Shown one piece after another: positions 19,725 to 35,012 of a DNA stretch of 54,763 nt. Both the position numbers and the translations under genes were made by a program. Within the stretch, counting starts at the first letter, position 1. The number at the start of each line of letters is the position of its first letter. This DNA comes from a virus (lineage: Duplodnaviria > Caudoviricetes). The notes under the pieces were generated by a model. The model had not been told where the DNA came from. It did not search any database and worked only from the letters and a program-made list of their open reading frames with translations. Location of the stretch: the IMG/VR virus record IMGVR_UViG_3300047284_000338, positions 1 through 54,763 of that record. One strand, given 5' to 3'.

Positions 19725-20307
19725 GCTCTACGGCCCGCTTGCGAAGTTCATCGGCAAGCGCGTGCTTTATGCAGATGTGGCAACCGCGGCTGAAGCTGTG
19801 CGCTTCTTGCTGGCAAATTGGCCCACGGTCGAGAAGCATATGGCTGATCAGCACTACCGCGTCAGCGTCGGGGGATACGACATCGCTCTCGAAGAGCTGC
19901 ATCATCCCGCCGGCCAGCAAGAGATCAAGATCGTCCCAGTGGTCGCTGGCGCTGGAACGGTCGGGCGGATTCTGGCCGGGGTTGCCTTGGTGGCGCTCGC
20001 GATCGCAATCCCGGGGATCGGCGGCGGCGTCGCTGCCACGATCTTCGGTACGAAATTTTCGGCGCTCTCGCTGGCAATCGGCGGCGTCGGTCTAAGCCTG
20101 GCTCTCGGCGGCGTTGCGCAGCTGCTTACACCAGTGCCACAGGTTCCGCAGGTCGGCAAGGATTCCGACAAGGACCCTCGCAAGTCTTATAGCTTCAGCG
20201 GAATCCAGAACGTGTCGAGACAGGGCGTTCCGGTACCGGTGGTCTACGGCGAGACCATCGTGGGCTCAGTGACCATCAGCGCCGCCGTTGACATCAGCCA
20301 GACATGA
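19708..20307 (+). CDS. Tail assembly protein I
   Basis: [38 protein letters not shown]. Confidence 0.93.
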
Positions 20308-23300
20308 CCGACATTCAACTGATCTCTGGCGCCGGCGGTGGTGGTGGCTGCTTCCTCGGCCATACCCTGATACGCACACCCCAGGGCTTGCGTCCGATCG
20401 AGACGCTCGACCGCGGCGATCAAGTATTGAGCTTCGACGATCAGGGCCAGCTACACACGGCGACGATCCTGAAGGTCCACGTCCATGAGGGCGAGCGCGT
20501 GGTGCGCTACCGGCTGTGGGGCGGTGCGGAGCTCGATGCCACACCAAACCACTGGGTACTGAACCAGTTCAACGCCTTCGTGGAGATCGGCACGCTGGGC
20601 GATGACGACTGCCTGGTCGACGAGAACGGCCATCTGCGGCCGATCGTCGGGCGGACTGACCAGGGCACGGGCACGGTGTACAACCTGACTGTCGAGGGTC
20701 ATCACACGTTCATTGCTGGCGGCATTAGGGTCCACAATGCCGGCTTGGGCCTAGGCATTGCCGGTTCAGGCGGCTTTGGCGGCGGCGGCAAAGGCGGCGG
20801 CGGCGGCACCAGGACTCCGACTGAGGCAGCCGATGACCTGAATAGCAGCGCCACCGTCGAGGTAATCGATCTCCTTGGCGAGGGCGAAATCGAAGGCTTT
20901 GCCACGCCATCGAAGGCCGGACTGGCCCGTGACAGCGCGGACTGGAACCGCGCCATGCTCAAAGACATCTACCTCAACAACACGCCAATTCTTCGACAGG
21001 GCGCGAGCAATTCTGCGCCCGCCGATGGCGACTACAACTTCAAGAACGTCGGAATCGAGGTCAGATACGGCACCCAAGCGCAGCAGCCAATCAACTCCAA
21101 CACTGGCAGCGGCGCTTCGGCAAATGAAGTTGCGGTCGGAGTTGTTGTCGAGAAAAACGTCCCTGTCACCAGGACGATCACGGATGTCAATGTCGACGCC
21201 GCAAGGGTGACAATCTCTTTCCCGCAGTTCCAGCAGTTCACGGACCAGGGCGACATCGTCGGCACCAGCGTCCAATTGCAGATCGCGGTGCAGTACAACG
21301 GCGGCGGCTTCACGACTGTCATTACTGACACAGTCACCGGCCGGTCTGGCGATCAATATCAGCGCGACTACATGGTGAATTTATCCGGCGCTTTTCCAGT
21401 CGACATTCGTGTAACGCGTGTCACGGATGACAGCAACAGTACCAAGTTAATCAACGCATTTACGTGGACCAGTTACACGGAAATTGTCGCGAAAAAATTT
21501 CGGTACCCGAACAGCGCATTAGTCGGAATGAGGGTTAATGCTGAGCAGTTCAGCAGCATCCCTACGCGGAGCTTTCGAGTCCGCGGACTAAAGGTTCAGA
21601 TCCCGAGCAATGCGAACGTTGACTTGGCCACGGGGCGTCTGGTTTACTCCGGCGTGTGGAACGGCACGTTCGGGGCCGCGCAGTGGACCTCGGATCCTTG
21701 CTGGTGTCTTTGGAATCTGTTGACCAGCAAAAGGTTTGGATTTGGTGATCACATCACTGCGGCAAGCTTGGACAAATGGGCCTTTTATTCGGCTAGTCAA
21801 TATTGCAACGAGCTCGTTCCGACCGGCTTCGGAGGCACTGAGCCTCGCTTCTCACTGAACTGCAACATCCAGACAGCGGAAGAAGCTCACAAGCTGATCA
21901 ACGACTTGTGCAGCGTGTTCCGGGCGATGCCCTACTGGGGCACGGGTGCGCTGACAGTGGCGCAGGACAAGCCCACAGATCCGACCTACCTTTTCACTTC
22001 CGCCAATGTTACCGAGGAGGGCTTCTCCTACTCGGGCAGTGACTCCAAAACGCGGCCGACGGTGGCAGTTGTGTCTTACCTCGATCTCACCACGAGAGAG
22101 ATCGCTTACGAGGTAGTCGAAGACGCCGCTGCAATGGCAAAGTACGGAGTCGTCACCTCAGAGATTGCTGCTTTTGCATGCACCTCCCGCGGCCAGGCTG
22201 CTCGCCTGGGTGAATGGCTCCTTTACTCAAATCAGTACGAAACAGAGGTCTTGAGCTTCACCGCGTCGGTCGATGCGGGTGTCCTAGTCCGCCCAGGACA
22301 GGTGATTGAGGTGGCGGATCCTGCTCGTGGCGGCGCAAGACGGGGTGGTCGTGTCGCCTCGGCAACAACAAATACCATTACGGTCGATAATCCGGTCGAT
22401 CTTCCTGATAACGGCGGCACGATTTCAGTCATCTTGAAAGATGGCAGCCTAGAAGCTCGGCCGGTTGTTACACGTGTGGGTAGCACTTTGACTGTTAGCC
22501 CGGCTTTCTCGTCGGCGCCGGGTATCAATTCCCTTTGGGTCTACAGCGGTGGCGGCATCCAGGCGACGCTGTGGCGCGTCTTGACGGTTCAGGAGCAGGA
22601 CGGAGCTCGGTACTCGGTGACGGCTTTGAGCTACAACCCGAGCAAGTATGACTTCATTGAGCGCGATCGGCCGTTGCAGTTCAGAGATGCCACAAACCTG
22701 AACCTAATCCCTGCCGCGCCTACGCGCCTGTCTCTCGCCGAAGCTCTTTACACGTATCAGGCCGAAGTGCGGGCAAAGGTGATCATCACCTGGCGCCAGG
22801 TGCGCGGTGTGAATCAATACCGAGTGAGGTGGCGGAAAGCCAGTGGCAACTGGAATACGCACACCACCCAGAGCCCTGACCACGAAATCTTGAACATCAC
22901 CCCGGGACTGTTTGAGGTGGAGGTGTTTAGCTTGAACTCTGTTGGCCAGATCAGCACGACAGCGCTGACAGGGAGCATCAACGCTTTAGGTAAGACGGCC
23001 CCGCCGAGCAATGTATCGGGTATGACGTATGCAATCGACAGCGATCTTGGCGTTTCGTTGAGCTGGAGTCCGGTTTCGGATCTAGACATCAAAGACTATG
23101 AGATTCGGCGAGGTGGCACCGACTGGGGCAGCGCTACACTTTTGGCATATGTAAAAACGACACGCTATGTTCTTGGGCTTATTGATCCCAGTGTTACAAG
23201 GTACTGGGTCAAGGCGAGAGACACGAGCAACGTTGTAAGTCAGAGCGCCGCTTCAACAACGGTCGTCATTACAGCGCCTGGTGCGCCTACCGTGACGCAC

Positions 23301-25058
23301 GCCATCCAAGATCCGCTTGCGATCATCTCCTGGACCACACCATCTGGATCGTACCGCCCAGATTATTACGACCTGCGGTACGGAAACACTTTTGCCGGCG
23401 GTGTGGGCGTCACCCGCGTGTATGGCAACAGTTTTAGTGTTCCAGTCACGTGGAGCGGCAGCCGAACTTTTTGGGTCGCAGGTGTCGATCCGGCAGGCAA
23501 TACTGGTACCGCCGGGTCGCGAGTAATTACTATTTCCGCAGCGCCGGCTCCGACTGTTTCGGCAGCATTCGCTGGAAGCAGCTGCACTCTTTCCTGGACA
23601 CGCGTCGACGGCTCACTGCAGACGTTTTTTTACGAAATTCGCTACGGAGCTTCATGGGAAACCGGCACTAAGGTCACCAAGATCGGCGCGGATGGTACCG
23701 GTTATTCTTTGACTGTCACATGGTCAGGTTCAAGGACCTTCTGGGTAGCGGCAATCGATGCCAACGGAAACTATGGCGCCGCGGGCAGTGTCGTGGCGAC
23801 TGTGGGACTTTCTCCGGCGCCATCGCTGTCCAACACGTTCTCTGGTCCGAATGCGCAGCTTAGCTGGCAACCTGTCAAGGGCACGCTGGAGACAGCCTTC
23901 TATGAGATCCGTCGCGGCAGCGCTTTTGCCAGCGCTACGGTTCAAGGTAAGGTAAATAGCAACTTGTTCACTACCAAGGTAGACTGGACTGGCACCGCTA
24001 AATTTTGGGTTGTCCCTGTAGATACTAACGGCGGCTATGGCGAATCAGCCTCTATCGATGTCACTTTGCCGGCCCCTTCCCAGCCCTCCATCGCTGTTCA
24101 GGTTGTCGACAACAATGTCTTGTTCCGGTGGCAGGACTGCACGACAGTGCTTCCAGTCGATGCTTACGAGTTGCGCCGAGGCTCGAATTGGGCGTCTGCA
24201 ACGGTAATTGGCACTAAGTCAGGCCTGTTTACCTCGGTATTCGAAACAACAAGCGGCTCGTTCACGTACTGGATTGCCGCGATTGACAGCTCGGGCACGT
24301 ACGGGGCGCCAGGCAGTGTTTTAGCGGTAGTCAGCCAGCCGCCCGACTACGTTCTGCAGCTTGACCAAAACTCTAACTTCAGCGGTACGAAGGTAAATGC
24401 AGTTCAAGAAAGTGCAACATTGTTATTGGCGGTCAACACTACGGAGACCGTTGAGCAACATTTTACCTCGAGAGGCTGGACGTCACCACAGGATCAGATC
24501 AACGCTGGTTACAGTTTCTGGCTGCTTCCGTCCGCGACATCGGGCTCTTACGAAGAAATAATTGACTACGGCGCTGTGGTGGGTGGTACTCGCGTTAGCC
24601 AAACGCTCACGAGCACGGCCGCCACCGGCTCAATGGTCGCCACTCCTAAAATAAGTGTAAAGAAACTTGCAACCGATGCCTGGACGGACTACCCCGACGT
24701 GGACCAAGTGTACGCCTCCGATTTTCAGTACATTAAGTTTCGATACGATTTCAATAGCGCCGGTAACGACGACCTACTATTGGTCACGAGCTTAAACTAC
24801 AGAATGGACCTGAAGCTCAAGAAGGACTTCGGATCGGGCACGAGCTCTGCTAGTGACGTCGGGGGAACTACAGTGAACTTCAATCTGAGCTTCATTGACG
24901 TGCAGTCCATTACCGTGACACCGTCTGGGACGGCTGCCCGCGTGGCCATCTATGATTTTGTGGATACCCCCGGCCCCACGAGCTTCAAGGTGCTCCTGTT
25001 CGACACCAACGGCAACCGGGTTAGCGGCGGCTTCAGCTGGAGCGCTCAAGGAGTCTGA
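20304..25058 (+). CDS. Tail tip / host-specificity protein J with N-terminal Hint domain and FN3 repeats
   Basis: LLGEGEIEG, YPNSALVG, WTSDPCW, DKWAFY, ACTSRGQAARLGEW, FN3 repeats. Confidence 0.95.
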   Translation: MTDIQLISGAGGGGGCFLGHTLIRTPQGLRPIETLDRGDQVLSFDDQGQLHTATILKVHVHEGERVVRYRLWGGAELDATPNHWVLNQFNAFVEIGTLGDDDCLVDENGHLRPIVGRTDQGTGTVYNLTVEGHHTFIAGGIRVHNAGLGLGIAGSGGFGGGGKGGGGGTRTPTEAADDLNSSATVEVIDLLGEGEIEGFATPSKAGLARDSADWNRAMLKDIYLNNTPILRQGASNSAPADGDYNFKNVGIEVRYGTQAQQPINSNTGSGASANEVAVGVVVEKNVPVTRTITDVNVDAARVTISFPQFQQFTDQGDIVGTSVQLQIAVQYNGGGFTTVITDTVTGRSGDQYQRDYMVNLSGAFPVDIRVTRVTDDSNSTKLINAFTWTSYTEIVAKKFRYPNSALVGMRVNAEQFSSIPTRSFRVRGLKVQIPSNANVDLATGRLVYSGVWNGTFGAAQWTSDPCWCLWNLLTSKRFGFGDHITAASLDKWAFYSASQYCNELVPTGFGGTEPRFSLNCNIQTAEEAHKLINDLCSVFRAMPYWGTGALTVAQDKPTDPTYLFTSANVTEEGFSYSGSDSKTRPTVAVVSYLDLTTREIAYEVVEDAAAMAKYGVVTSEIAAFACTSRGQAARLGEWLLYSNQYETEVLSFTASVDAGVLVRPGQVIEVADPARGGARRGGRVASATTNTITVDNPVDLPDNGGTISVILKDGSLEARPVVTRVGSTLTVSPAFSSAPGINSLWVYSGGGIQATLWRVLTVQEQDGARYSVTALSYNPSKYDFIERDRPLQFRDATNLNLIPAAPTRLSLAEALYTYQAEVRAKVIITWRQVRGVNQYRVRWRKASGNWNTHTTQSPDHEILNITPGLFEVEVFSLNSVGQISTTALTGSINALGKTAPPSNVSGMTYAIDSDLGVSLSWSPVSDLDIKDYEIRRGGTDWGSATLLAYVKTTRYVLGLIDPSVTRYWVKARDTSNVVSQSAASTTVVITAPGAPTVTHAIQDPLAIISWTTPSGSYRPDYYDLRYGNTFAGGVGVTRVYGNSFSVPVTWSGSRTFWVAGVDPAGNTGTAGSRVITISAAPAPTVSAAFAGSSCTLSWTRVDGSLQTFFYEIRYGASWETGTKVTKIGADGTGYSLTVTWSGSRTFWVAAIDANGNYGAAGSVVATVGLSPAPSLSNTFSGPNAQLSWQPVKGTLETAFYEIRRGSAFASATVQGKVNSNLFTTKVDWTGTAKFWVVPVDTNGGYGESASIDVTLPAPSQPSIAVQVVDNNVLFRWQDCTTVLPVDAYELRRGSNWASATVIGTKSGLFTSVFETTSGSFTYWIAAIDSSGTYGAPGSVLAVVSQPPDYVLQLDQNSNFSGTKVNAVQESATLLLAVNTTETVEQHFTSRGWTSPQDQINAGYSFWLLPSATSGSYEEIIDYGAVVGGTRVSQTLTSTAATGSMVATPKISVKKLATDAWTDYPDVDQVYASDFQYIKFRYDFNSAGNDDLLLVTSLNYRMDLKLKKDFGSGTSSASDVGGTTVNFNLSFIDVQSITVTPSGTAARVAIYDFVDTPGPTSFKVLLFDTNGNRVSGGFSWSAQGV
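20349..20738 (+). other. Hint (mini-intein/BIL-like) domain, 130 aa
   Basis: Block A CFLGHTLI, block B ATPNHW, block F VYNLTVEGHHTF, terminal VHN; +1 residue is Ala. Confidence 0.9.
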
Positions 25059-26713
25059 TGGCTAACTGGTCCAACCCCACGCTTACCAGCACCTACTCCA
25101 ACTTTCTGGCGGACCTGAAGGCCAGAGACGAGGACCTGGCAAAACAGTTTGACGGCCAGACCGTCAGCAACCTGGTCACGGGCGCAGTTCGATGGAACAG
25201 CTCGATCAACCGCTGGCAGAAGTGGTCTGGCACGGCCTGGGGCGAGCTGGCGACCACTTACGCCCTGACGGGGCTGAGTACGACCGGCAACGCCAATATC
25301 GGCGGCACGTTGACCGTGACGGGCGCGACTGCGCTGGCAGCGGCAACAGCAACCACGCCGGCCACGGCCGACAACAGCACCAACATCGCGACGACAGCCT
25401 ACGTCCGGGCACAGGGCTACGCCGCTCTGGCGAGCCCTGCTTTCACTGGCACGCCAACCGCGCCAACCGCAGCAGTTGGCACGAACACGACCCAGCTTGC
25501 GACCACCGCGTTCGTGATTGGTCAAGGCGCATCGGCTGCCCCTTTGGGGACGGCCAGCACTGCAACGACTGGAACATCTGCACGTTACGCCCGCGAGGAT
25601 CACAGACATCCAATTGACTTCCTGGACTACGCCTATATCACCAACAGTCCTTGGAAGAACAACTGTCGGCTTGGGACCACCGCCAACCTCACGGCGACTT
25701 ACGCCAACGGCACGGCTGGCGTAGGTGCAACGCTCTCTAACTCAGGCACATTGGCAGCGCTGTCGCTCGACGGCGTTGCGGTTGCGGTGAACGACCGGGT
25801 CCTGGTCAAAGATCAGACCACTGGCGCCCAGAACGGTATCTATACCGTCACCAACGTTGGCTCGGCCTCAGTGGCATGGGTGCTCACGCGAGCGACAGAT
25901 GGTGACACGGCTGCGGAGATGGCCGGAGCGCTGGCTACCGTCGACGCTGGCACGGCAAACGGCGGCAGGCTTTTCACTACCACCTTTGCTGCCTCGGGTA
26001 CTATCGGAACCACTGCGGTCTCTTGGTTCGAGATTCCCACCGTCAGTAGCCCGGCGTTCACTGGCACCCCGACGGCACCTACTGCGGCTGCTGGCACCAA
26101 CACAACGCAGATTGCGACGACGGCGTTTGTAACCAGTTCGCCGTCATTCACTGGCACACCGACGGCTCCAACTGCCGCAGCCGGCACGAACACAACGCAG
26201 ATTGCAACTACCGCGTACGTCACGGCAGCCGCAAACCTGAAAGCAAACCTGGCTTCGCCTGCTTTTACGGGCACCCCGACCGCCCCGACAGCAGCGGCCG
26301 GCACCAATACCACTCAAGTAGCGACGACAGCGTTCGTAAGCGCTGCGTTTACAGCCCGGAGCGTCACGGCAGGTGCTGGCTTAACCGGTGGCGGCACCCT
26401 TGCGGCAGACCGCTCAATTTCGCACGCGGACACGTCCAGTCAGGCTAACGTTTCACTGACCACCGGCAACGTGGTCAGCTCAATCACCCTAGACACTTAC
26501 GGGCACGTAACCGGAATCGGCAGTGCAAATCTCAACACACACTTCTTCAACACAGTCAGCAACTGCCATGGCGCCGTGCAAAACTGCGCGGAGTTTCAGT
26601 GCGGCATTTCAAACTGCGCTACTCTTACCGATCAAGGAGGCAACGTCGCCCTGGGCGGCATTGGCTACGCTCAGTACAACTGCAACTGCGACTGCAACTG
26701 CGCACCAGGCTAA
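25058..26713 (+). CDS. Tail fibre protein with Asn-Cys-rich C-terminus
   Basis: Repeats of SPAFTGTPTAPTAAAGTNTTQIATTAFV; DRVLVKDQ..NGIY domain; ends ...YNCNCDCNCAPG. Confidence 0.88.
   Translation: MANWSNPTLTSTYSNFLADLKARDEDLAKQFDGQTVSNLVTGAVRWNSSINRWQKWSGTAWGELATTYALTGLSTTGNANIGGTLTVTGATALAAATATTPATADNSTNIATTAYVRAQGYAALASPAFTGTPTAPTAAVGTNTTQLATTAFVIGQGASAAPLGTASTATTGTSARYAREDHRHPIDFLDYAYITNSPWKNNCRLGTTANLTATYANGTAGVGATLSNSGTLAALSLDGVAVAVNDRVLVKDQTTGAQNGIYTVTNVGSASVAWVLTRATDGDTAAEMAGALATVDAGTANGGRLFTTTFAASGTIGTTAVSWFEIPTVSSPAFTGTPTAPTAAAGTNTTQIATTAFVTSSPSFTGTPTAPTAAAGTNTTQIATTAYVTAAANLKANLASPAFTGTPTAPTAAAGTNTTQVATTAFVSAAFTARSVTAGAGLTGGGTLAADRSISHADTSSQANVSLTTGNVVSSITLDTYGHVTGIGSANLNTHFFNTVSNCHGAVQNCAEFQCGISNCATLTDQGGNVALGGIGYAQYNCNCDCNCAPG
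25430..26340 (+). repeat. Coding repeats of tail-fibre motif SPAFTGTPTAPTAAxGTNTTQxATTA(F/Y)V
   Basis: Four near-identical copies in the translation, plus a partial upstream copy. Confidence 0.85.
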
Positions 26714-26716
26714 CCA

Positions 26717-27409
26717 ATGAAATCACACTCTTCTTACGCGTCGATTCTGCCGGCCGCTCCGGGGCCGGAAGGAGTACCACTGACTGGCTCAGTGCAGCTG
26801 CAGTCAGATGGTATTTCTTTTGACCTGGCAATGGGGCCCAATAGGCAGGTCGCGACCCTTTCGTTTCAACAGGTTGGCTCCCTGTCCGAAGATCGAGGAT
26901 TGGTGTCTGCTTGCTCTGATTTATTGCTAGCTCGAATTGAAATTGAGAACACAATTATTAGGACGCTTCCTACTCGTCAGAGCATTCGCAATTGGCGTGA
27001 TCGCTTGCCTTTTGTAATGATAGCGACACCTTGGAAAGGATGTCCTATTCAGGAGTGCTCGCTTTTGGCGGTAACTTATCCTGGCGTAACATATACCGGC
27101 TTTGATTTTGGGTCAGCTGTTAGCGACATGCAAGCGTGGCTAGACGCAAAGCTTTACAGTCCTATTCTGTTTGACGGACCAAATACCGTAGCGGCCGGCA
27201 GTAGCGCAATTGTTCGTGTTACCGCTCCGCCAAACATGACGGCTTACCTTGATTGCGATGCAGGAAACCTCAGTTATTGGCGCGTAAAAGGCGAAAAGAA
27301 TGTCAAGGTTTCTGCCGTAGACCTCCTGCCGGGAGACTCTATTAAAATCAAAGCCGGCTACCGCAACTGGCCTGGCGAATCTGATTTCTTGATTCAAGTC
27401 ACCGAGTAA
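26717..27409 (+). CDS. Hypothetical protein (accessory gene of the fibre/radical SAM module)
   Basis: 230-aa ORF tightly spaced between the fibre and radical SAM genes; visibly lower GC. Confidence 0.7.
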   Translation: MKSHSSYASILPAAPGPEGVPLTGSVQLQSDGISFDLAMGPNRQVATLSFQQVGSLSEDRGLVSACSDLLLARIEIENTIIRTLPTRQSIRNWRDRLPFVMIATPWKGCPIQECSLLAVTYPGVTYTGFDFGSAVSDMQAWLDAKLYSPILFDGPNTVAAGSSAIVRVTAPPNMTAYLDCDAGNLSYWRVKGEKNVKVSAVDLLPGDSIKIKAGYRNWPGESDFLIQVTE

Positions 27410-27416
27410 CACCTAA

Positions 27417-29399
27417 ATGGCCGTTTTCGCTCTTCGATGCTTTGATCCCAGTGACAAGACTAACAAGGTTGTCTATTATGACAACTCAAACAATCTCATC
27501 ACAGACGGGCACGACACTGCTCCTCATACTGACCAGCCAGTCCTGACTCCGCATCGCGTATCACGTGAAACTCCAGCCGGGAAGGCTGCGCTGCCTCGCG
27601 TGCTCAAAATCCAAATGGGCTTGAGCTGCAACTACTCTTGCGAGTATTGCGTGCAGCGTTTTGTGCCCCATGCCGATGAAACCAGCGCCGTGATGGTGCC
27701 GGCGTTCGTCGAAGCTCTGCGCAGCTGGTTCAACCCGCCTAATGGCGGGGAAGGACGCCGCATCGAGTTCTGGGGCGGTGAGCCGCTGGTCTACCTGAAG
27801 ACCATGCGCCCTCTGGCTGAAAAACTTCGAGCAGCCTACCCCAACATCAGATTTTCAACTATTACCAACGGCTCACTGCTCACTCGCGAGATTGTCGATT
27901 GGTTCTACGACATGGGTTTTTCCCTGGCCATATCTCACGATGGCCCAGGCCAGGCGGTGCGCGGGATCGATCCGCTGACACGTCCCGCAACACGAGACGC
28001 ATGGCTTTACGCTTACCAGCGACTCAGCCCTTACCGGATCTCCTTCAACACCATGATGAACCGCGAAAACCGATCGCGGTGGGCAGCAGCTCAGTTTTTT
28101 CGCGAGCTGACTGGCAATCCAGGTGTGGTGGTCGGAGAAGGCAGCATTGTCGATGCTTACGACGAAGGTGGCGTCTCAATGTCGCTCAGGCCTGAAGATT
28201 TCAAGGTCTATGCAAATCAAGCATGGGCAGAAATAAGACAAACTGACGTCGCAGCCAACTTTGGAATTATTCCTTCCCGAGTGAACGAGTGGCTCAACGC
28301 TTTCAATACCATGCAGCGAGCCGAGACTCTCGGCCAAAAGTGCGGCATGGATCGAATGGACTCAGTGGCAGTCGACCTGCGCGGCAACGTGGTCACCTGT
28401 CAGAACGTGTCGGCATCGGCTACCGCTCCAAACGGGGAGTCGCACAAGATCGGCCACATGTCCAGCATGGAGGACGTGAAGCTCAACACGGCTACCCACT
28501 GGAGCTTCCGCGACAAGTGCTCCAAGTGCCCCGTGCTCCAGGTCTGCAAAGGCTCTTGCATGTTCCTGGAGGGTGAGTTGTTCGAGGTGAGCTGCAACAA
28601 CGCCTACTTTGATCACGTGCCAATGTTCGCAGAAGCGCTATTGCAGCGGACCGGGCTTGTACTGCGTGAAATCGTGGGCGACTTGCCAGCAGAGCGCCGC
28701 GATCCATTCGGATTGGCTTATCCGGCGCCGCTTCTGACATCTTCGACCAGTCCTGAGCTGCAGAAGTGGCGTTTGCACAGTGACTTTATTGAGGCATACT
28801 ATGTGCCTGACGTTCTAAACAAAGAAGAGTGCAAGAGAATCATTGGCGCCGCTGACACTTGCATGGCTCAGGACTTTACTGTTGGCAAGGGCGGGTTTCG
28901 GGTTTGGAGCGAACACCGGACTAGCGCAAGCTCGAAGATGCCATTAGTCGATTCCGATTTTTGCATGGAGCGAGAGATCGACGCCCGTCTGGCTGCGATT
29001 ATTGGATGGGACCCCGCCGCAAGCGAGCCCATGAGATTGTTGCGCTACGAACCAGGTCAGCAATTCAAGCTGCACGCGGACTATTTTCCAGATGTCAAAA
29101 ATGAGTGGACTGAGCCCGGCGGTCAAAGAGTTTGGACTGCATTGCTTTACCTGAACGACATGGAGCAAGACCAGCAAGGGGAGACCAATTTTCCTGACGC
29201 CGGTATTCAGGTTTCGCCTCGAGCAGGATCTGTATTGTTGTTCCGAAATCTGCTTGATGATGGTCAATGCAATTACTTTGCCCGCCACGAAGGACGGCCT
29301 CCGGCATTTGGTGTTAAGTTTTGTTTGACCAAGTTCTTTCGACAAGAGCCTGGTCGCAATCCCCTGTACGCTTCAGTCAATCAAGAGGTCTTCGCTTGA
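27417..29399 (+). CDS. Radical SAM/SPASM protein fused to a C-terminal prolyl-4-hydroxylase-like 2OG-Fe(II) oxygenase
   Basis: CNYSCEYC (CxxxCxxC), FWGGEPL, TNGSLL, ISHDGP; SPASM KCG...TCQ...CSKCPVLQVCKGSC...C; oxygenase LRYEPGQQFKLHADYF, TALLYLND, GETNFP, H...K. Confidence 0.92.
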   Translation: MAVFALRCFDPSDKTNKVVYYDNSNNLITDGHDTAPHTDQPVLTPHRVSRETPAGKAALPRVLKIQMGLSCNYSCEYCVQRFVPHADETSAVMVPAFVEALRSWFNPPNGGEGRRIEFWGGEPLVYLKTMRPLAEKLRAAYPNIRFSTITNGSLLTREIVDWFYDMGFSLAISHDGPGQAVRGIDPLTRPATRDAWLYAYQRLSPYRISFNTMMNRENRSRWAAAQFFRELTGNPGVVVGEGSIVDAYDEGGVSMSLRPEDFKVYANQAWAEIRQTDVAANFGIIPSRVNEWLNAFNTMQRAETLGQKCGMDRMDSVAVDLRGNVVTCQNVSASATAPNGESHKIGHMSSMEDVKLNTATHWSFRDKCSKCPVLQVCKGSCMFLEGELFEVSCNNAYFDHVPMFAEALLQRTGLVLREIVGDLPAERRDPFGLAYPAPLLTSSTSPELQKWRLHSDFIEAYYVPDVLNKEECKRIIGAADTCMAQDFTVGKGGFRVWSEHRTSASSKMPLVDSDFCMEREIDARLAAIIGWDPAASEPMRLLRYEPGQQFKLHADYFPDVKNEWTEPGGQRVWTALLYLNDMEQDQQGETNFPDAGIQVSPRAGSVLLFRNLLDDGQCNYFARHEGRPPAFGVKFCLTKFFRQEPGRNPLYASVNQEVFA

Positions 29400-29581
29400 A
29401 CCAGCTCAAACAACAGCTCACCGAGCTGATCGACGCTTACGGCACCGCCAGGGTAACCGGTAATCAGCTGCTGACACAGGCAGCTGCCTCCAGCTTGGTG
29501 GAGTTCCTTGAAAGCGTCGTCATCAGCAGCGACGTAGCCGTCGAGCCCTCCGAAGCCGAGCCTGCCCCCTCTGAGGACTGA
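29396..29581 (+). CDS. Hypothetical protein
   Basis: TTG start overlapping the previous stop; translationally coupled to the next ORF. Confidence 0.5.
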   Translation: MNQLKQQLTELIDAYGTARVTGNQLLTQAAASSLVEFLESVVISSDVAVEPSEAEPAPSED

Positions 29582-29718
29582 TGGCCGTCAAAGCCAAGAC
29601 AGGCGTTGCCAGGGTCGACCACCAGCCTGGTCGACCCAAGACCACCTCCATCGGGCAGGGCATGAATTCCAGGCCGCGGCGACGGGGCAAAAAGCCACTG
29701 CGCGGGCAGGGTCGATAG
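29581..29718 (+). CDS. Small basic protein (45 aa, ends KKPLRGQGR)
   Basis: Read manually: MAVKAKTGVARVDHQPGRPKTTSIGQGMNSRPRRRGKKPLRGQGR; too short for the ORF track. Confidence 0.65.
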   Translation: MAVKAKTGVARVDHQPGRPKTTSIGQGMNSRPRRRGKKPLRGQGR

Positions 29719-29892
29719 ATGGACCCCGCCACTCGGGAAAATTGGCGCAAAGTCAAGGAAGTCCTTGAGGCGGCGGGAAAAACCGACAACCACTACTACC
29801 GCCGAGCGCTTGCCATCGTGGCCGGAATGCCGGACCCATTCGATCGCTACGATGGGACCGACGCAGGCCGCAGCGATGTCAGACGACCCTAA
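29719..29892 (+). CDS. Small hypothetical protein (57 aa)
   Basis: Read manually: MDPATRENWRKVKEVLEAAGKTDNHYYRRALAIVAG...; starts immediately after the previous stop. Confidence 0.6.
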   Translation: MDPATRENWRKVKEVLEAAGKTDNHYYRRALAIVAGMPDPFDRYDGTDAGRSDVRRP

Positions 29893-30109
29893 AAGCGTAG
29901 GCGGCGTCCTGACCGCTTCGCTCCCGGCGGCCATTGCCGCCGGCATGTTTGCGATTGGTGCGCTCCTGGTCTCCATGCAGGTCCAGGCCGCCAGGATTGA
30001 AGCCACAGTGCAGGCGACAGCCAGCGCTATTCAAGACTTGAAAAACGACGCACGCACCCAGCTTGCCGATCTCGATAAGCGAGTGCGCATGCTTGAAATT
30101 CGCGAGTAA
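29876..30109 (+). CDS. Membrane protein with coiled coil (lysis accessory/holin-like)
   Basis: One TM segment plus coiled coil; lies in the lysis cassette. Confidence 0.55.
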   Translation: MSDDPKSVGGVLTASLPAAIAAGMFAIGALLVSMQVQAARIEATVQATASAIQDLKNDARTQLADLDKRVRMLEIRE

Positions 30110-30123
30110 CGTGGAGACATACC

Positions 30124-30321
30124 GTGCTCAACATCATGCGCTACCTGCCTGAAATCGTGACCGTTGCCGTCGCCGCGCATGGCCTCGCGGTGGCGATTGT
30201 CAACCTGACCCCTACGCCGAAAGACAACGAAGCGCTCGACACCTACAGCCGCATGGTGGTCAAGGTGTACCGCGCAATCGAGATCCTGGCCGGTGTCATC
30301 ACCCCACTGGTGAAGCGCTGA
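30124..30321 (+). CDS. Holin-like membrane protein
   Basis: Hydrophobic segments, LTPTPKD motif; directly before the endolysin. Confidence 0.6.
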   Translation: MLNIMRYLPEIVTVAVAAHGLAVAIVNLTPTPKDNEALDTYSRMVVKVYRAIEILAGVITPLVKR

Positions 30322-30324
30322 GCC

Positions 30325-31413
30325 ATGGCCAACCCGGCACCGATCACCTTGGAGCAGATCGTCCGGTTCAACCGGGGGCTGCCACACCAGCTGGCCGCCA
30401 TCTCCGAGCTGGAGGCCGACCTCAAGGCCAACGGCTACGAGGTGGCGATGCGCCGAGATCGGCCGTGGTTCAACACCTGGAGCCAGGACGGTAAGCAGGT
30501 GGACCTCAGTGACGCGCTGGAGCTGATCCAGCAGTTCGAGGGCTGCCACTTGGACGCTTACCCTGACCCGGCCAGCGGCGGCGAGCCGTGGACGATCGGC
30601 TGGGGCACGACCCGCTACAGCGACGGCCGCAAGGTCGAAAAGGGCGACAAGCTGAACCGCGTTGAGGCCGACATGCTGCTGCGGCAGGAGGTCGACCGGA
30701 TCGCTGACAAACTGCGCACGACCGTGCCGTTCTGGGTGGCGATGGCCGACTACCAGAAATGCGCCTTGATCAGCTTCGCCTACAACCTCGGCTCGGGGTT
30801 CTACGGCACCCAGGGCTTCGAGACGATCAGTCGCGAGCTGCGCGAGAAGAATTGGGCCGCGGTCCCGGCTGCCATGCTGCTCTACCGCAACCCTGGCAGC
30901 AACGTCGAGGCCGGCCTGAAGCGCCGCAGGGAGGCCGAGGGTAAGCTCTGGCAGGGCAGCAAGCCGGCAGCACCAAAGCAGCCTGCAACGGCCAAGCTGA
31001 CGCCTGACAGCCCGTTCACGCTGCGGGTCACGCCGCACATCACCCTGGGCGAGTTTGCGCTCGACCAGGAGGCCAGGCGCTTCGGTCACCAGCACCAGCT
31101 GGACACCGCAGCCGAGCTGGCCGCCTTCCTCGAGCGGGTGCGGATCGCGTTCGGTGGCAAGCCGATCATCATCACCAGCGGCTACAGGCCGCCGGCGATC
31201 AACCGCTCAGTGGGTGGTGCCTCGGGGTCCGAGCACCTGTACTCCCAGCCCCGCGAGGGTGCAGTGGACTTCCTGATTCACGGCGCCGACATCAAGCTGG
31301 TCCAGGACTGGTGCGACAAGAACTGGCCTTTCAGCGTCGGTTACGGCGCTCCGAAGGGGTTCGTGCATCTGGGTCGTCGCGCTGACGGCCAGCGGAGGCG
31401 CTGGGACTACTGA
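30325..31413 (+). CDS. Endolysin: GH24 lysozyme plus C-terminal peptidase M15 domain
   Basis: FEGCHLDAYPD...WTIGWGTT, ALISFAYNLG, GLKRRREAE; ITSGYR..N..VGGASGSEHL...AVD...FVHLG. Confidence 0.92.
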   Translation: MANPAPITLEQIVRFNRGLPHQLAAISELEADLKANGYEVAMRRDRPWFNTWSQDGKQVDLSDALELIQQFEGCHLDAYPDPASGGEPWTIGWGTTRYSDGRKVEKGDKLNRVEADMLLRQEVDRIADKLRTTVPFWVAMADYQKCALISFAYNLGSGFYGTQGFETISRELREKNWAAVPAAMLLYRNPGSNVEAGLKRRREAEGKLWQGSKPAAPKQPATAKLTPDSPFTLRVTPHITLGEFALDQEARRFGHQHQLDTAAELAAFLERVRIAFGGKPIIITSGYRPPAINRSVGGASGSEHLYSQPREGAVDFLIHGADIKLVQDWCDKNWPFSVGYGAPKGFVHLGRRADGQRRRWDY

Positions 31414-32747: not shown

Positions 32748-35012
32748 ATGTTCCCGACCACCGCACCCGCTGCCAATCCCGTTTTCTACCGCACCTATTC
32801 CCGCAAGCGCCCCGAAGGCCGTGAAAGCTGGCGTGAGGTCACAGACCGCACCGTCAATGGCCTGGTCGTTCTGGGCAAGCTCACCGAGGCCGAGACCCGC
32901 CTGATCCGGCAGCAGCAGGAGCACCTGCGTTGCCTGCCCTCCGGCCGCTGGTTGTGGGTGGGTGGCACGCCCTGGATCGAGAAGCCCGAGAACTTCTCCG
33001 GCGCCTACAACTGCACCTCCACCGATCTGATCGACTGGGAGGCGTTCGCGCTGATGATGGACCTGGCCATGATGGGCTCGGGCACCGGCGCCATCATCGA
33101 GCCGCATCTGATCGAGCAGCTGCCGATCGTCCGCAATCGCCTTGAGGTCGAGGTGGTTCAAGGCATCGGCGTGATGCCCGATGGGCGCCGCCAGCAGACC
33201 ACCACGCTGAGCTGGGCCGGCCCTGACGCCACCATCACCGTGGGGGACAGCCGGGCCGGCTGGGTCCGCGCCTACCGGCTGATGCTGGAGCTCAGCAGTG
33301 CGACCGACTTGGACCCCTTCAAGATCAGGGTGATCCTCGGCAACGTGCGTCCCGCCGGTGAGTGTCTCCAGGGTTTTGGCGGCACGGCCAACCCCGCCAA
33401 GCTGCCCGAGCTGTTCGGCCGCATGGCAGCCATCCTCAACCGGGCCAACGGCCGCCGCCTCACATCGGTGGAGTGCTGCCTGTTGATCGACGAGGCCGCC
33501 TCGGTGGTTGTCGCCGGCAACATCCGCCGCAGCGCTGGCATGCGCCAGTTCGCTGCCGATGACGACCAGGCAGCCGCCGCAAAGGACAACCTGTGGTCTC
33601 AGGGCGAGGACGGCGCCTGGCGCATCGACCCAGAGCGCGACGCCCTGCGGATGGCCAACCACACGCGGGTGTTCCACGAGCGCCCGAGCCGCGAGGTGGT
33701 CCTGGAGGCTGTCACCAAGCAGTTCTACTCCGGTGAGGGTGCCATCCAGTTTGCTCCCGAGGCCATCGCCCGCTCCAACCGCGACCTGCTCACCAGTGAG
33801 GAGCTGCGCCGCCAGTTCGTCAACGTCTATTGCGACGAGGGCCAGGAGGTCGCTGCCAGCCTGCTGCTGCACTTGCGCCCTGAGATGGAGCTGGAGGAGC
33901 TCGATCACCGCCTAGGCCGCTACGGCCTCAACCCCTGCGGCGAGATCCTGGGCACCGACTTCCACTGCAACCTGTCTGAGATTCACCTGAACCAGCTCGA
34001 CCCCTCAGACGAGAAGGGTCAGGACGATGCGTTCCGCGCCGGCGCCCTGGCCGTGGCCGCCCTGCTCAACCACGAGTTTGTGGTCGAGCGGTACCGCAAG
34101 AGCCGCGAGCTCGATCCGATCGTTGGCGTCAGCTTCACCGGCCTGTTCGATTTCTTCGTCCATGCCTTCGGTGCTGACTGGCTGGAGTGGTTCGCCGCCG
34201 GCCGCCCTGACACCGAGACTGGCCGCGTCTACAAGGTCGCCGAAGCCGCTTACCTAAAGCGCTGGCGCAACGTGGTCGAGGGCACCGTCTGGGAGTATTG
34301 CGACCGCCACGGCCTGCGTCGCCCCAACCGCTGCACCACCGTGCAGCCCGCCGGCACCAAGAGCCTGCTGACCGGCGCCTCGCCCGGCTGGCACCCGCCC
34401 AAGGCCCAACGCTTCATCCGCCGCATCACCTTCCGCAAGAACGATCCGGTGGCGATGGCCTGCATCGACTTCGGCTACAACGTGATCCCCAGCCAGTCCG
34501 ACAAGGACGAGCAGGGCCGGCTGCTCGACAACCCGTTCGACGAGCGCTGCACCGAGTGGCTGGTGGAGATCCCCACCGCTGTGAGCTGGGCCGACCTGCC
34601 CGGCGCTGACGCCGTCGACATCAGCCAGATCTCGGCGCTCGCGCAGTTCGACTTCTACATGCAGGTGCAGAAGCACTACACCGCGCACAACACCTCGGCG
34701 ACCATCGAGTACCGGGAGAACGAAATCGAACCGCTTGCTGACGCCATCTATCAGGCCATTCAGGACAACGAGGGTTACATCAGCGCTGCTCTCCTGGCAC
34801 GTTTTGATGCAAATGAGACGTTCCCGCGCCTGCCATTCGAGCCGATCGACAAGGCCACCTTCGAGAAGCTCTCGGCCGAAGTGGAAGCTCGCCGCGGCGA
34901 GGATGATTTTTTTGCGGCCCTGAAGCGCTATGACGTAGGTGAGCTTGTCGAAGCGGGTCCAGCCGGGTGCGATGGAGACAAGTGCCTTTTCGCCGCCGCC
35001 TCGCCCAAATGA
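32748..35012 (+). CDS. nrdJ: Class II (adenosylcobalamin-dependent) ribonucleotide reductase
   Basis: YRTYSR, PSGRWLW, YNC, VVAGNIRRSA, NPCGEI, TTVQPAGTKSLL, C-terminal CDGDKC; no beta subunit nearby. Confidence 0.93.
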   Translation: MFPTTAPAANPVFYRTYSRKRPEGRESWREVTDRTVNGLVVLGKLTEAETRLIRQQQEHLRCLPSGRWLWVGGTPWIEKPENFSGAYNCTSTDLIDWEAFALMMDLAMMGSGTGAIIEPHLIEQLPIVRNRLEVEVVQGIGVMPDGRRQQTTTLSWAGPDATITVGDSRAGWVRAYRLMLELSSATDLDPFKIRVILGNVRPAGECLQGFGGTANPAKLPELFGRMAAILNRANGRRLTSVECCLLIDEAASVVVAGNIRRSAGMRQFAADDDQAAAAKDNLWSQGEDGAWRIDPERDALRMANHTRVFHERPSREVVLEAVTKQFYSGEGAIQFAPEAIARSNRDLLTSEELRRQFVNVYCDEGQEVAASLLLHLRPEMELEELDHRLGRYGLNPCGEILGTDFHCNLSEIHLNQLDPSDEKGQDDAFRAGALAVAALLNHEFVVERYRKSRELDPIVGVSFTGLFDFFVHAFGADWLEWFAAGRPDTETGRVYKVAEAAYLKRWRNVVEGTVWEYCDRHGLRRPNRCTTVQPAGTKSLLTGASPGWHPPKAQRFIRRITFRKNDPVAMACIDFGYNVIPSQSDKDEQGRLLDNPFDERCTEWLVEIPTAVSWADLPGADAVDISQISALAQFDFYMQVQKHYTAHNTSATIEYRENEIEPLADAIYQAIQDNEGYISAALLARFDANETFPRLPFEPIDKATFEKLSAEVEARRGEDDFFAALKRYDVGELVEAGPAGCDGDKCLFAAASPK

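Follow-up and report, generated by a model that had tools for sequence, protein, structure and literature searches.

Why would a phage join, in one polypeptide, a radical S-adenosylmethionine (SAM) enzyme with three oxygen-labile clusters and an oxygenase that consumes O2? The question is raised by an uninterrupted open reading frame (ORF) in IMG/VR virus record IMGVR_UViG_3300047284_000338 (Duplodnaviria; Caudoviricetes), a complete record of 54,763 bp from a freshwater metagenome, which represents an uncultured phage and the whole of which is here called the window. The ORF encodes a radical SAM/SPASM half followed by a prolyl 4-hydroxylase (P4H)-type 2-oxoglutarate (2OG)-Fe(II) oxygenase half. 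Two genes upstream of it lies the gene of a tail fibre that ends in closely spaced Asn-Cys pairs, here called the ladder. On balance we lean towards the reading, made by analogy with characterised enzymes, that the product of the fused gene is a maturase with two activities, which would introduce thioether-type cross-links and a hydroxyl group into the tip of the tail fibre that the same phage encodes. The fused gene has the following features:

27417..29399, + strand: fused enzyme, 660 aa in an uninterrupted ORF, consisting of a radical SAM/SPASM half, a linker and a P4H-type 2OG-Fe(II) oxygenase half
27417..28721, + strand: radical SAM/SPASM half, residues 1-435, from motifs, Pfam/NCBIfam matches and the AlphaFold2 (AF2) model
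27627-27650, + strand: cluster motif C71-x3-C75-x2-C78 of the radical SAM half
27774-27785, + strand: GGEP (G120-G121-E122-P123), SAM-binding motif of the radical SAM half
28341-28601, + strand: SPASM cysteines C309, C328, C368, C371, C377, C381 and C393 of the radical SAM half
28722..28802, + strand: linker, past the end of the stand-alone relatives (...RRDPFGLAYPAP followed by LLTSSTSPELQKWRLHSDFIEAYY); alignments to P4Hs of the PDB begin at residue 463
28803..29351, + strand: P4H-type 2OG-Fe(II) oxygenase domain, from PF13640 and PDB matches
29073-29075 (H553), 29079-29081 (D555), 29286-29288 (H624) and 29316-29318 (K634), + strand: oxygenase catalytic residues

A first-pass annotation, made from the sequence letters, had described an ORF that runs from a SPASM domain into a 2OG-Fe(II) oxygenase and had suggested a domain profile search as a check. 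The search placed all three domains over their cut-offs in the single frame: Pfam Radical_SAM (PF04055) at residues 68-219 (39.9 bits, cut-off 29.5), NCBIfam SPASM (TIGR04085) at residues 309-383 (32.3 bits, cut-off 27) and Pfam 2OG-FeII_Oxy_3 (PF13640) at residues 540-642 (52.1 bits, cut-off 27). PHROG families divide the protein likewise, with phrog_1802 (radical SAM) at 46-398 and phrog_61 (2OG oxygenase) at 448-645; the annotation's start of the oxygenase at nucleotide 28790, residue 459, agrees with the latter and with the PDB alignments. The radical SAM half has, besides its Pfam score, the CX3CX2C and GGE-type motifs and the fold matches of the superfamily. Its seven-Cys SPASM motif is complete (C309-x13-G-x4-C328; C368-x2-C371-x5-C377-x3-C381; C393), and CX3CX2C, GGEP and all seven SPASM cysteines are invariant across 72 relatives. 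The AF2 model of this half has a pLDDT of 91.7 and a pTM of 0.90, and the ESM Atlas model of the whole fused protein a pTM of 0.77.

The oxygenase motifs named in the annotation were all located: HADYF at residues 553-557 (nt 29073-29087), YLND at 578-581, GETNFP at 588-593, the distal His as H624 in RHEGRP and the terminal Lys as K634 in GVKFCLTKF. The H-x-D...H iron triad and the Lys, i.e. H553, D555, H624 and K634 (H118, D120, H189 and K199 of the domain), are invariant across 68 P4H-family sequences. K634 aligns with the Lys of GEKWIATQW in the Bacillus anthracis P4H, the basic residue for the C5 carboxylate of 2-oxoglutarate. Judged by sequence, both halves hold every residue required for the predicted catalysis.

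The description of the second half as prolyl-4-hydroxylase-like was also borne out. In a PDB sequence search with residues 436-660, all eight chains matched at E <= 1 were prolyl 4-hydroxylases, among them those of B. anthracis (5iax/3itq/5hv0, E ~1e-18), Chlamydomonas (2jig, 1e-16), human C-P4H alpha-2 (7zsc) and PBCV-1 (5c5t), and the iron triad and the 2OG-binding Lys were aligned. Residues 463-644 align end to end with the monomeric P4Hs, i.e. those of B. anthracis, Chlamydomonas P4H-1 (2jig/3gze) and PBCV-1, with E values of 1e-18 to 1e-16, and 1.6e-05 for PBCV-1. Like these, the domain has the iron triad and the 2OG Lys and has no collagen-type N-terminal peptide-binding domain; Pfam found neither P4Ha_N nor TPR domains in the 660-aa protein, which sets it apart from the collagen-type P4H alpha subunit. 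Unlike them, it is fused behind a radical SAM/SPASM half, its identity to any relative is at most ~40 %, and its target may not be proline. With a PDB identity of ~30 %, and in a family that includes enzymes with other substrates, prolyl-4-hydroxylase-like is a statement on likeness.

A sequencing or assembly artefact, which the first-pass annotation had named as one danger to its reading, was looked for and not seen. A Logan contig of 13,336 nt with a word depth of 41 spans positions 26600-29700 with 0 differences and 0 indels; it was assembled with another assembler from two runs of equal size, probably from the same sample as the record and not from an independent one, which excludes an assembler chimera, if not an oddity of the sample. 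In addition, a second fused protein, P0010 (641 aa, from another Logan assembly and data set), has the same domain order and is 57 % identical to the window enzyme overall; the two radical SAM halves share 68 % and the two P4H halves 38 % identity, and the H, D, H and K are conserved. Since a second assembler gives the same ORF and P0010 has the same architecture, the fusion is not an artefact. The alternative that it is one after all, or that it is a decaying gene with one dead half, is extremely improbable: it could draw on there being two examples only, on the long branch of the P4H half (1.57 against a median of 0.79) and on its third-position GC of 0.54 against 0.65 in the radical SAM half, whereas the identical sequence at depth 41 and the retention of architecture and all catalytic residues in a 57 %-identical protein speak against it.

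The fusion is rare, with two known proteins. A protein search gave 1849 relatives of the radical SAM half (E <= 0.001), and among the 120 matches listed PF13640 occurred in the query and P0010 only, the other 118 being 382-460 aa long. Stand-alone relatives of 442-460 aa cover query residues 1 to about 435. No fusion was present in the 74 IMG/VR loci that hold a relative of the radical SAM half, where matches stop at or before query residue 453 and the stop-to-stop frames are 445-525 aa, save one cut by the contig end, nor in the eight loci of species-representative genomes. From the other side, the oxygenase half gave 7237 matches in 1.84 billion representatives, and none of 22 that were Pfam-scanned from the best 150 (long and top matches) had a radical SAM domain. 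The nearest stand-alone oxygenase relatives (29 metagenome and two viral loci, 25-39 % identity) had no radical SAM gene in the flanks fetched, the ESM Atlas contained no cluster of at least 50 members combining both families, and a word-based search with residues 436-660 returned only the query itself.

Two further relatives of the P4H domain may be mentioned here. The closest viral one (L078 1-684, 36 % identity) starts at the first base of its contig and may be either a stand-alone gene or the truncated end of a third fused protein. Another, P0219, one of the 22 scanned, has P4Ha_N and TPR domains.

A clue to what the enzyme acts on is given by the tail fibre, for which the following features apply:

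25058..26713, + strand: tail fibre, 551 aa, the proposed substrate, with PHROG matches, TPTAPT repeats and a Cys-rich C-terminal tip
26561..26710, + strand: Asn-Cys ladder tip domain, fibre residues 502-551, with six N-C pairs and ending YNCNCDCNC-APG
26678..26701, + strand: NCNCDCNC tract, followed by A-P-G and the stop codon (26702-26713)

The fibre matched 22 PHROG families at E <= 0.01, of which 11 are annotated as tail fibre or fibre assembly (best phrog_2631, 6.5e-33). Eight of its nine Cys lie within residues 503-548, in the last 49 residues, and six of these eight are preceded by Asn, the N-C pairs being at residues 502, 509, 519, 541, 543 and 547; the C-terminus reads ...YAQYNCNCDCNCAPG. 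Over all six frames the 54.8-kb genome has no run of three or more [NDAQSTV]-Cys units other than the NCNCDCNC tract. The tip can be aligned with fibre tips and small ladder proteins from beside related radical SAM genes, and in this alignment of nine sequences N51-C52, C64, N90-C91 and C93 are invariant.

Comparison with related loci suggests that the neighbourhood of fibre ladder and radical SAM gene is not accidental. Ralstonia phage RSP15 and Achromobacter phage JWF, both isolated and unrelated, have stand-alone enzymes 45-49 % identical to the radical SAM half and the same gene order as the window, in which the radical SAM gene comes after a fibre with a Cys ladder and an accessory protein. 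In RSP15 the side-fibre fragment has ...NTNCQCGN as its end, and the JWF fibre gp28 (L002 3844-5295) has ...QNCNCDCNCNCSC immediately before a Hint domain. Using as criterion a same-strand ORF with at least three consecutive [NDAQSTV]-Cys units, a ladder was found on the strand of the radical SAM gene in 58 of the 74 IMG/VR loci, compared to eight of 74 on the opposite strand. Nearly all of these 58 tracts are encoded upstream of the enzyme gene, at the very C-terminus of their protein or just before a Hint-type Cys. The window thus has what defines the cassette, a relative of the radical SAM enzyme, here 45-61 % identical to the cassette enzymes, and a same-strand C-terminal x-Cys tract.

Oxygenases are the third component of many of these cassettes. 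From the region -3 kb to +2.5 kb of the radical SAM genes, 514 non-overlapping ORFs were reduced to 367 representatives, of which the 261 of 130-420 aa were scanned with Pfam and their labels transferred to ORFs at least 70 % identical. At least one 2OG-type oxygenase (E <= 0.01) was found in 42 of the 74 loci, and as many as six in one locus; most were 2OG-FeII_Oxy_5, the others Oxy_3, Asp_Arg_Hydrox or JmjC_2. Some of these matches lie under the Pfam gathering score, and cuts by contig ends lower the count. The closest relatives, L004, L005 and L006 (60-61 % identity), have the order Oxy_5, radical SAM, Oxy_5. Split counterparts of the fused gene are these three loci and also L039 and L021, where the order is Oxy_5, radical SAM and Oxy_3, the last overlapping the end of the radical SAM gene. 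A tree built from the radical SAM half places the two fused proteins as sisters (SH-aLRT 94), nested in a clade of 14 rows (support 99) with L004, L005 and L007, whose other members of known context have flanking oxygenase genes.

The first-pass annotation had called the pairing of a radical SAM enzyme with an O2-dependent oxygenase odd and had proposed a comparison of fused and split forms in related phages. That comparison turned out otherwise: with separate oxygenase genes at 42 of 74 loci, the combination is the rule of the cassette, and only the fusion is rare. The window enzyme is the most compact form of a radical SAM/oxygenase cassette. Radical SAM enzymes function in the reducing cytoplasm of aerobic cells, and in the synthesis of pyrroloquinoline quinone (PQQ) a radical SAM/SPASM enzyme is combined with O2-dependent steps, so the pairing is unusual as a fusion and not contradictory.

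Several other observations were made on the related loci. In no fewer than 14 of the 74 (L002, L017, L019, L020, L024-L027, L030-L032, L034, L036, L037 and L050) the protein does not end with the ladder but continues from it straight into a Hint domain (for example ...NCNCNCACTC directly followed by FPAGT), and in L042 and L044 the Hint domain follows a few residues past the ladder. If the Hint domain self-cleaves, the mature fibre would again end in the ladder. Three to four tandem paralogues of small ladder proteins (118-177 aa) occur in L052 (4011-5090), L059/L072 (2621-3979) and L057 (1-1887), each ending in the same tract, e.g. NCNCACDC-L or ...ACACNC. Beside some radical SAM genes there are tailoring-type genes, namely a RimK-like ATP-grasp (L034 7356-8315), two fatty-acid-desaturase-like genes (L044 2811-3755; L075 4489-5926), a GNAT acetyltransferase (L028 2307-2759) and a methyltransferase (L073 2798-3358). 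Directly before the radical SAM gene of RSP15 is gp046 (L001 5114-5944), of a 276-aa family with H-x-D...H motifs that is also present in L041 (2779-3651), L075 (2308-3174) and, on the minus strand, L029 (7494-8387). Pfam recognises this family only through a weak Asp_Arg_Hydrox match of the L029 member (2.3e-4), and judged by its motifs it may be a further cassette oxygenase.

It might be asked whether the enzyme has anything to do with the virion. As an auxiliary gene it could modify a host protein or make a small peptide metabolite, and three observations fit this: the ladder proteins of many relatives are small (70-170 aa), third-position GC of the fibre/enzyme block is below that of the core genes, and the dioxygenase/halogenase array of cyanophage Syn9 has been proposed to make secondary metabolites (Iyer et al. 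2010, PMC2938197). We regard this explanation as very unlikely, as full-length tail fibres have the ladder as their C-terminus not only in the window but also in JWF and the L004-L008 and L021/L023 groups, the gene lies inside the tail module ahead of the lysis genes, and no small precursor-like ladder ORF occurs in the window.

For maturation of the fibre tip, the chemistry of the radical SAM half can be approached through its nearest characterised enzymes. A Foldseek search of the PDB ranked the thioether synthase CteB first (5why, E 2.7e-11, TM 0.55) and then anSME (4k37, TM 0.56/0.66), followed by ChlB, TigE and SkfB, and the half shares the three-cluster radical SAM/SPASM architecture of CteB (5why/5wgg), PapB and NxxcB. 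The two closest folds, CteB and anSME, both act on Cys in peptides or proteins, which we count in favour of a Cys-rich fibre tip as substrate. The best NCBIfam maturase match was PapB (NF047865, 8e-17), with 61.4 bits against a cut-off of 340, followed by anSME (TIGR03942, 59.1 against 349), QhpD (TIGR03906, 56.5 against 453) and SCIFF (TIGR03974, 27.6 against 425). Because the scores are below all named-family cut-offs, the half is filed only as radical SAM/SPASM. Unlike the thioether maturases, it has no leader-binding domain of the RiPP recognition element (RRE) type, the N-terminus of the model being only a three-strand sheet.

According to a review (PMC9389541), NxxcB joins the sulfur of Cys to the beta-carbon of an Asn, in place of which it also accepts Ala, Gln or Asp, and it is this set of acceptors with which Cys alternates in the phage ladders. 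Unlike the N-x-x-C motif of NxxcB, the ladder has Asn directly next to Cys, and what the window enzyme would act on is the terminal part of a structural protein of 551 aa. The available text on CrpC of Methanococcus voltae (Dieter et al. 2026, PMC13692751) describes an enzyme that puts thioethers on a whole Cys-rich protein, CrpA; the likeness, by description and not by sequence, is that of a radical SAM/SPASM enzyme acting on a Cys-rich protein rather than on a short peptide. Unlike the window enzyme, CrpC is archaeal and cellular and, in that text, has a predicted RRE and no oxygenase partner. By analogy with NxxcB, PapB, CteB and CrpC, the radical SAM half would abstract a hydrogen from a residue beside a Cys of the ladder (...YNCNCDCNC-APG), the substrate suggested by the genomic context, and bond the Cys sulfur to that carbon, and the resulting thioethers would staple the fibre tip.

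A different chemistry would result if the half were anSME-like, converting ladder Cys to formylglycine or another oxidised form which the oxygenase half then processes further. The anSME family is the only characterised one that aligns over the whole radical SAM half (TIGR03942 at residues 66-381; 4k37 at 68-383), and anSME acts on a Cys of a folded-protein substrate without a leader peptide and likewise has no RRE-type domain. This alternative nevertheless appears quite unlikely to us, as the anSME score is a small part of its cut-off (59 bits against 349), CteB is slightly better by fold, and alternating Asn/Asp/Ala-Cys fits the acceptor range of NxxcB. The sulfatase motif C-x-P/A-x-R is not matched by the ladder.

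The P4H-type half, with Fe(II), 2-oxoglutarate and O2, would add a hydroxyl group to some residue of this tip as well, and the fusion would keep both activities on one substrate. Candidate residues are Pro550, the prolines of the TPTAPT repeats and the ladder Asn or Asp; our first guess would be Pro550 of the terminal A-P-G and our second the ladder Asn or Asp. X-Pro-Gly is the classical collagen P4H site, the half matches only prolyl 4-hydroxylases in the PDB, and the window fibre, with its A-P-G, differs from every ladder tail listed for the 58 related loci in that a Pro follows the ladder. For Asn or Asp speak the Asp_Arg_Hydrox-type neighbours in a few cassettes. Moreover, the ladder protein of L039 has no Pro in its 78 printed residues, though an Oxy_3 gene adjoins it, so the PF13640 enzymes of the cassettes need not be prolyl hydroxylases.

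The first-pass annotation had named the TPTAPT repeats, besides Asn or Asp of the fibre, and four copies of TPTAPT were indeed found, at fibre residues 132, 337, 367 and 406. It is possible to imagine the two halves working on separate sites of the same fibre, the radical SAM half on the Cys ladder and the P4H half on the prolines of the repeats in the shaft, with the fusion serving only to deliver the P4H. The identity of the domain as a P4H by sequence, the 19 Pro of the fibre and the fact that the nearest stand-alone relatives of the P4H domain lie outside cassettes agree with this. P4Hs of viruses and algae are active on Pro-rich repeats, the PBCV-1 enzyme on those of the Pro-Ala-Pro-Lys type. 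We still hold it to be unlikely. The SPAFTGTPTAPTA-type repeat matches several tail-fibre PHROG families, whereas only 26 phage records of the collection searched match any part of the enzyme and none of these matches is fused, which indicates that a P4H is not generally needed for the repeat; furthermore, the conserved companion of the fusion partner is the ladder and not the shaft.

The P4H half does not seem to descend from the oxygenases of its relatives' cassettes. At profile level it forms one family with the cassette Oxy_3 group (hhalign 99.5 %, E 5e-23), and at the aligned 2OG-binding position the consensus of that group has Arg, compared to Lys in P4Hs. Its nearest relatives are ordinary stand-alone P4H-type genes (190-440 aa stop to stop, one of them open at the end of its contig), and the contigs on which they lie have no cassette. 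In the related loci the radical SAM gene has oxygenase genes as immediate neighbours, before or after it, and an overlap with its stop codon is frequent; a P4H gene of a different lineage may have been captured from outside the cassette and joined to the radical SAM gene in this oxygenase slot. Another relative of the P4H domain, P0259 (1098 aa), has a PqqD-type RRE at residues 423-479 of the same chain and, to judge from its domains, connects a P4H-type oxygenase with the modification of peptides independently of the window enzyme.

Several results weigh against maturation of the tip by both halves. With scores far under every named maturase cut-off, the thioether reaction type is an analogy only. 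No ladder was found in 16 of the 74 loci, several of which are cut just upstream of the enzyme gene, and no recognisable oxygenase in 32, some of them contig-cut and with the JWF-like group having none. The P4H half is not orthologous to the cassette oxygenases, being 23 % identical to the Oxy_3 of L039 and without detectable similarity to the downstream Oxy_5 of L004. In the 31 loci of its nearest stand-alone relatives there is neither a radical SAM gene nor a ladder nor the accessory protein; with these relatives outside cassettes, the cassette context says little on the target of this domain. In a quick IQ-TREE of the P4H domain both fused domains fall on a fork that the tree does not resolve and that would allow one fusion event or two. 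Finally, the Pro550 idea is based on one sequence. Two modifications of one fibre substrate, as the first-pass annotation had proposed, are thus supported in their comparative context, by the ladders, the neighbouring oxygenases and the ladder of the window's own fibre, while the modifications themselves would follow from analogy.

The genes around the enzyme form a block of four, tail-tip J, fibre, a 230-aa beta-sandwich protein and, last, the fused enzyme, followed by a lysis cassette. The protein between fibre and enzyme is:

26717..27409, + strand: accessory protein, 230 aa, two beta-sandwich (Ig-like) domains, between fibre and enzyme

It has no Pfam or PHROG match. Its AF2 model (pLDDT 90.4, pTM 0.80) matched only generic Ig-like folds in the PDB (TM ~0.3) and uncharacterised phage proteins in BFVD (TM 0.6-0.75). 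With phmmer, relatives were found between the ladder and radical SAM genes of 22 loci using the window protein as query and of 28 loci using RSP15 gp047. We propose that it is an adaptor or chaperone between the fibre tip and the enzyme.

Downstream of the enzyme there are two small ORFs (29765-30109 and 30124-30321) with translations that appear hydrophobic by eye and then, within 29765-31413, a two-domain endolysin (phage lysozyme and peptidase M15). As lysis genes directly follow the enzyme, the tail module ends with the cassette. At the start of the tail-tip J protein (1584 aa) there is a Hint/intein-like domain (GGGGGCFLGHT...VHNAG; window 20304-20830). Promoter and terminator scans of 24900-30400 gave two and six hits against 1.5 and 5.9 expected from shuffled sequence, i.e. 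no excess, and no RNA data set was listed as containing the stretch.

The fibre/enzyme block looks compositionally foreign. Third-position GC in 25058-29399 is 0.47 in the accessory gene, 0.54 and 0.65 in the P4H and radical SAM halves and 0.69 in the fibre, compared to 0.79 in TerL, 0.86 in RNR and 0.89 in the lysozyme (core genes at 630-2537, 30325-31413 and 32748-35012). As proof of recent transfer these values were rejected; they are a hint only.

The first-pass annotation had assumed a probably oxygenic host. Towards a cyanobacterial host point the lysozyme, 74 % identical in DNA to Synechococcus phage S-CBS3, the decoration-type protein, 60 % identical to a protein of cyanophage PSS2, and TerL, with a best match of 45 % to Synechococcus phage S-LBS1. 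Away from it point the nearly equal TerL match of 44 % to Roseobacter phages and the fact that relatives of the radical SAM half are found in genomes of freshwater Betaproteobacteria, Limnohabitans among them. Either candidate host kind lives in oxygenated water. In two loci with 48 % identity to the radical SAM half, a haem oxygenase gene follows the cassette, in L023 together with a ferredoxin-dependent bilin reductase gene (L021 7850-8383; L023 7320-7889 and 7744-8511); both are typical cyanophage auxiliary genes.

The fused domain is the only 2OG oxygenase found in the window genome (PF13759 0 matches, PF13640 one). The part of Iyer et al. 2010 available to us (PMC2938197) describes ten tandem dioxygenases in cyanophage Syn9, with metabolite synthesis proposed, and names tail-collar and collagen-like proteins as proposed substrates of dioxygenases in bacterial operons. 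Both systems are phage-encoded 2OG dioxygenases, those of Syn9 being multiple and of several families, and that part of the article names neither a radical SAM partner nor a Cys ladder.

What is new in the window is the fused P4H-type variant, a real and rare member of a widespread, experimentally untouched phage cassette whose mode of action would resemble the thioether maturation of RiPPs or proteins, combined with tailoring by oxygenases. A literature search, with most subscription journals outside its coverage, turned up no article that treats the cassette, the fusion of a radical SAM enzyme with a P4H or the modification of phage fibres by radical SAM enzymes, and no enzymatic cross-linking or hydroxylation of a phage tail fibre was found in the searchable literature. 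The cassette is widespread, as the number of radical SAM-half relatives indicates, and its oxygenase companions come from the families of the cyanophage arrays, which, going by PMC2938197, have lacked an explanation from 2010 or earlier. That a radical SAM enzyme and an O2-dependent hydroxylase act as one unit has its physical evidence in the fused form, which is also a natural case of an O2-labile three-cluster enzyme and an O2-consuming enzyme coexisting in one chain. We put forward only tentatively, as possible rather than probable, that one polypeptide here couples radical chemistry of an anaerobic type with O2-dependent hydroxylation to give a covalently stapled, hydroxylated Asn-Cys ladder at the receptor-binding end of the fibre. 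If true, the fusion would be a Rosetta stone that ties at least part of the (cyano)phage 2OG dioxygenase arrays to fibre-tip maturation and not to metabolites, and a one-gene enzyme with a 50-residue substrate would offer the simplest test system. Such a maturation, if real, would be a further level in the assembly and stabilisation of the tips with which phages bind their hosts.

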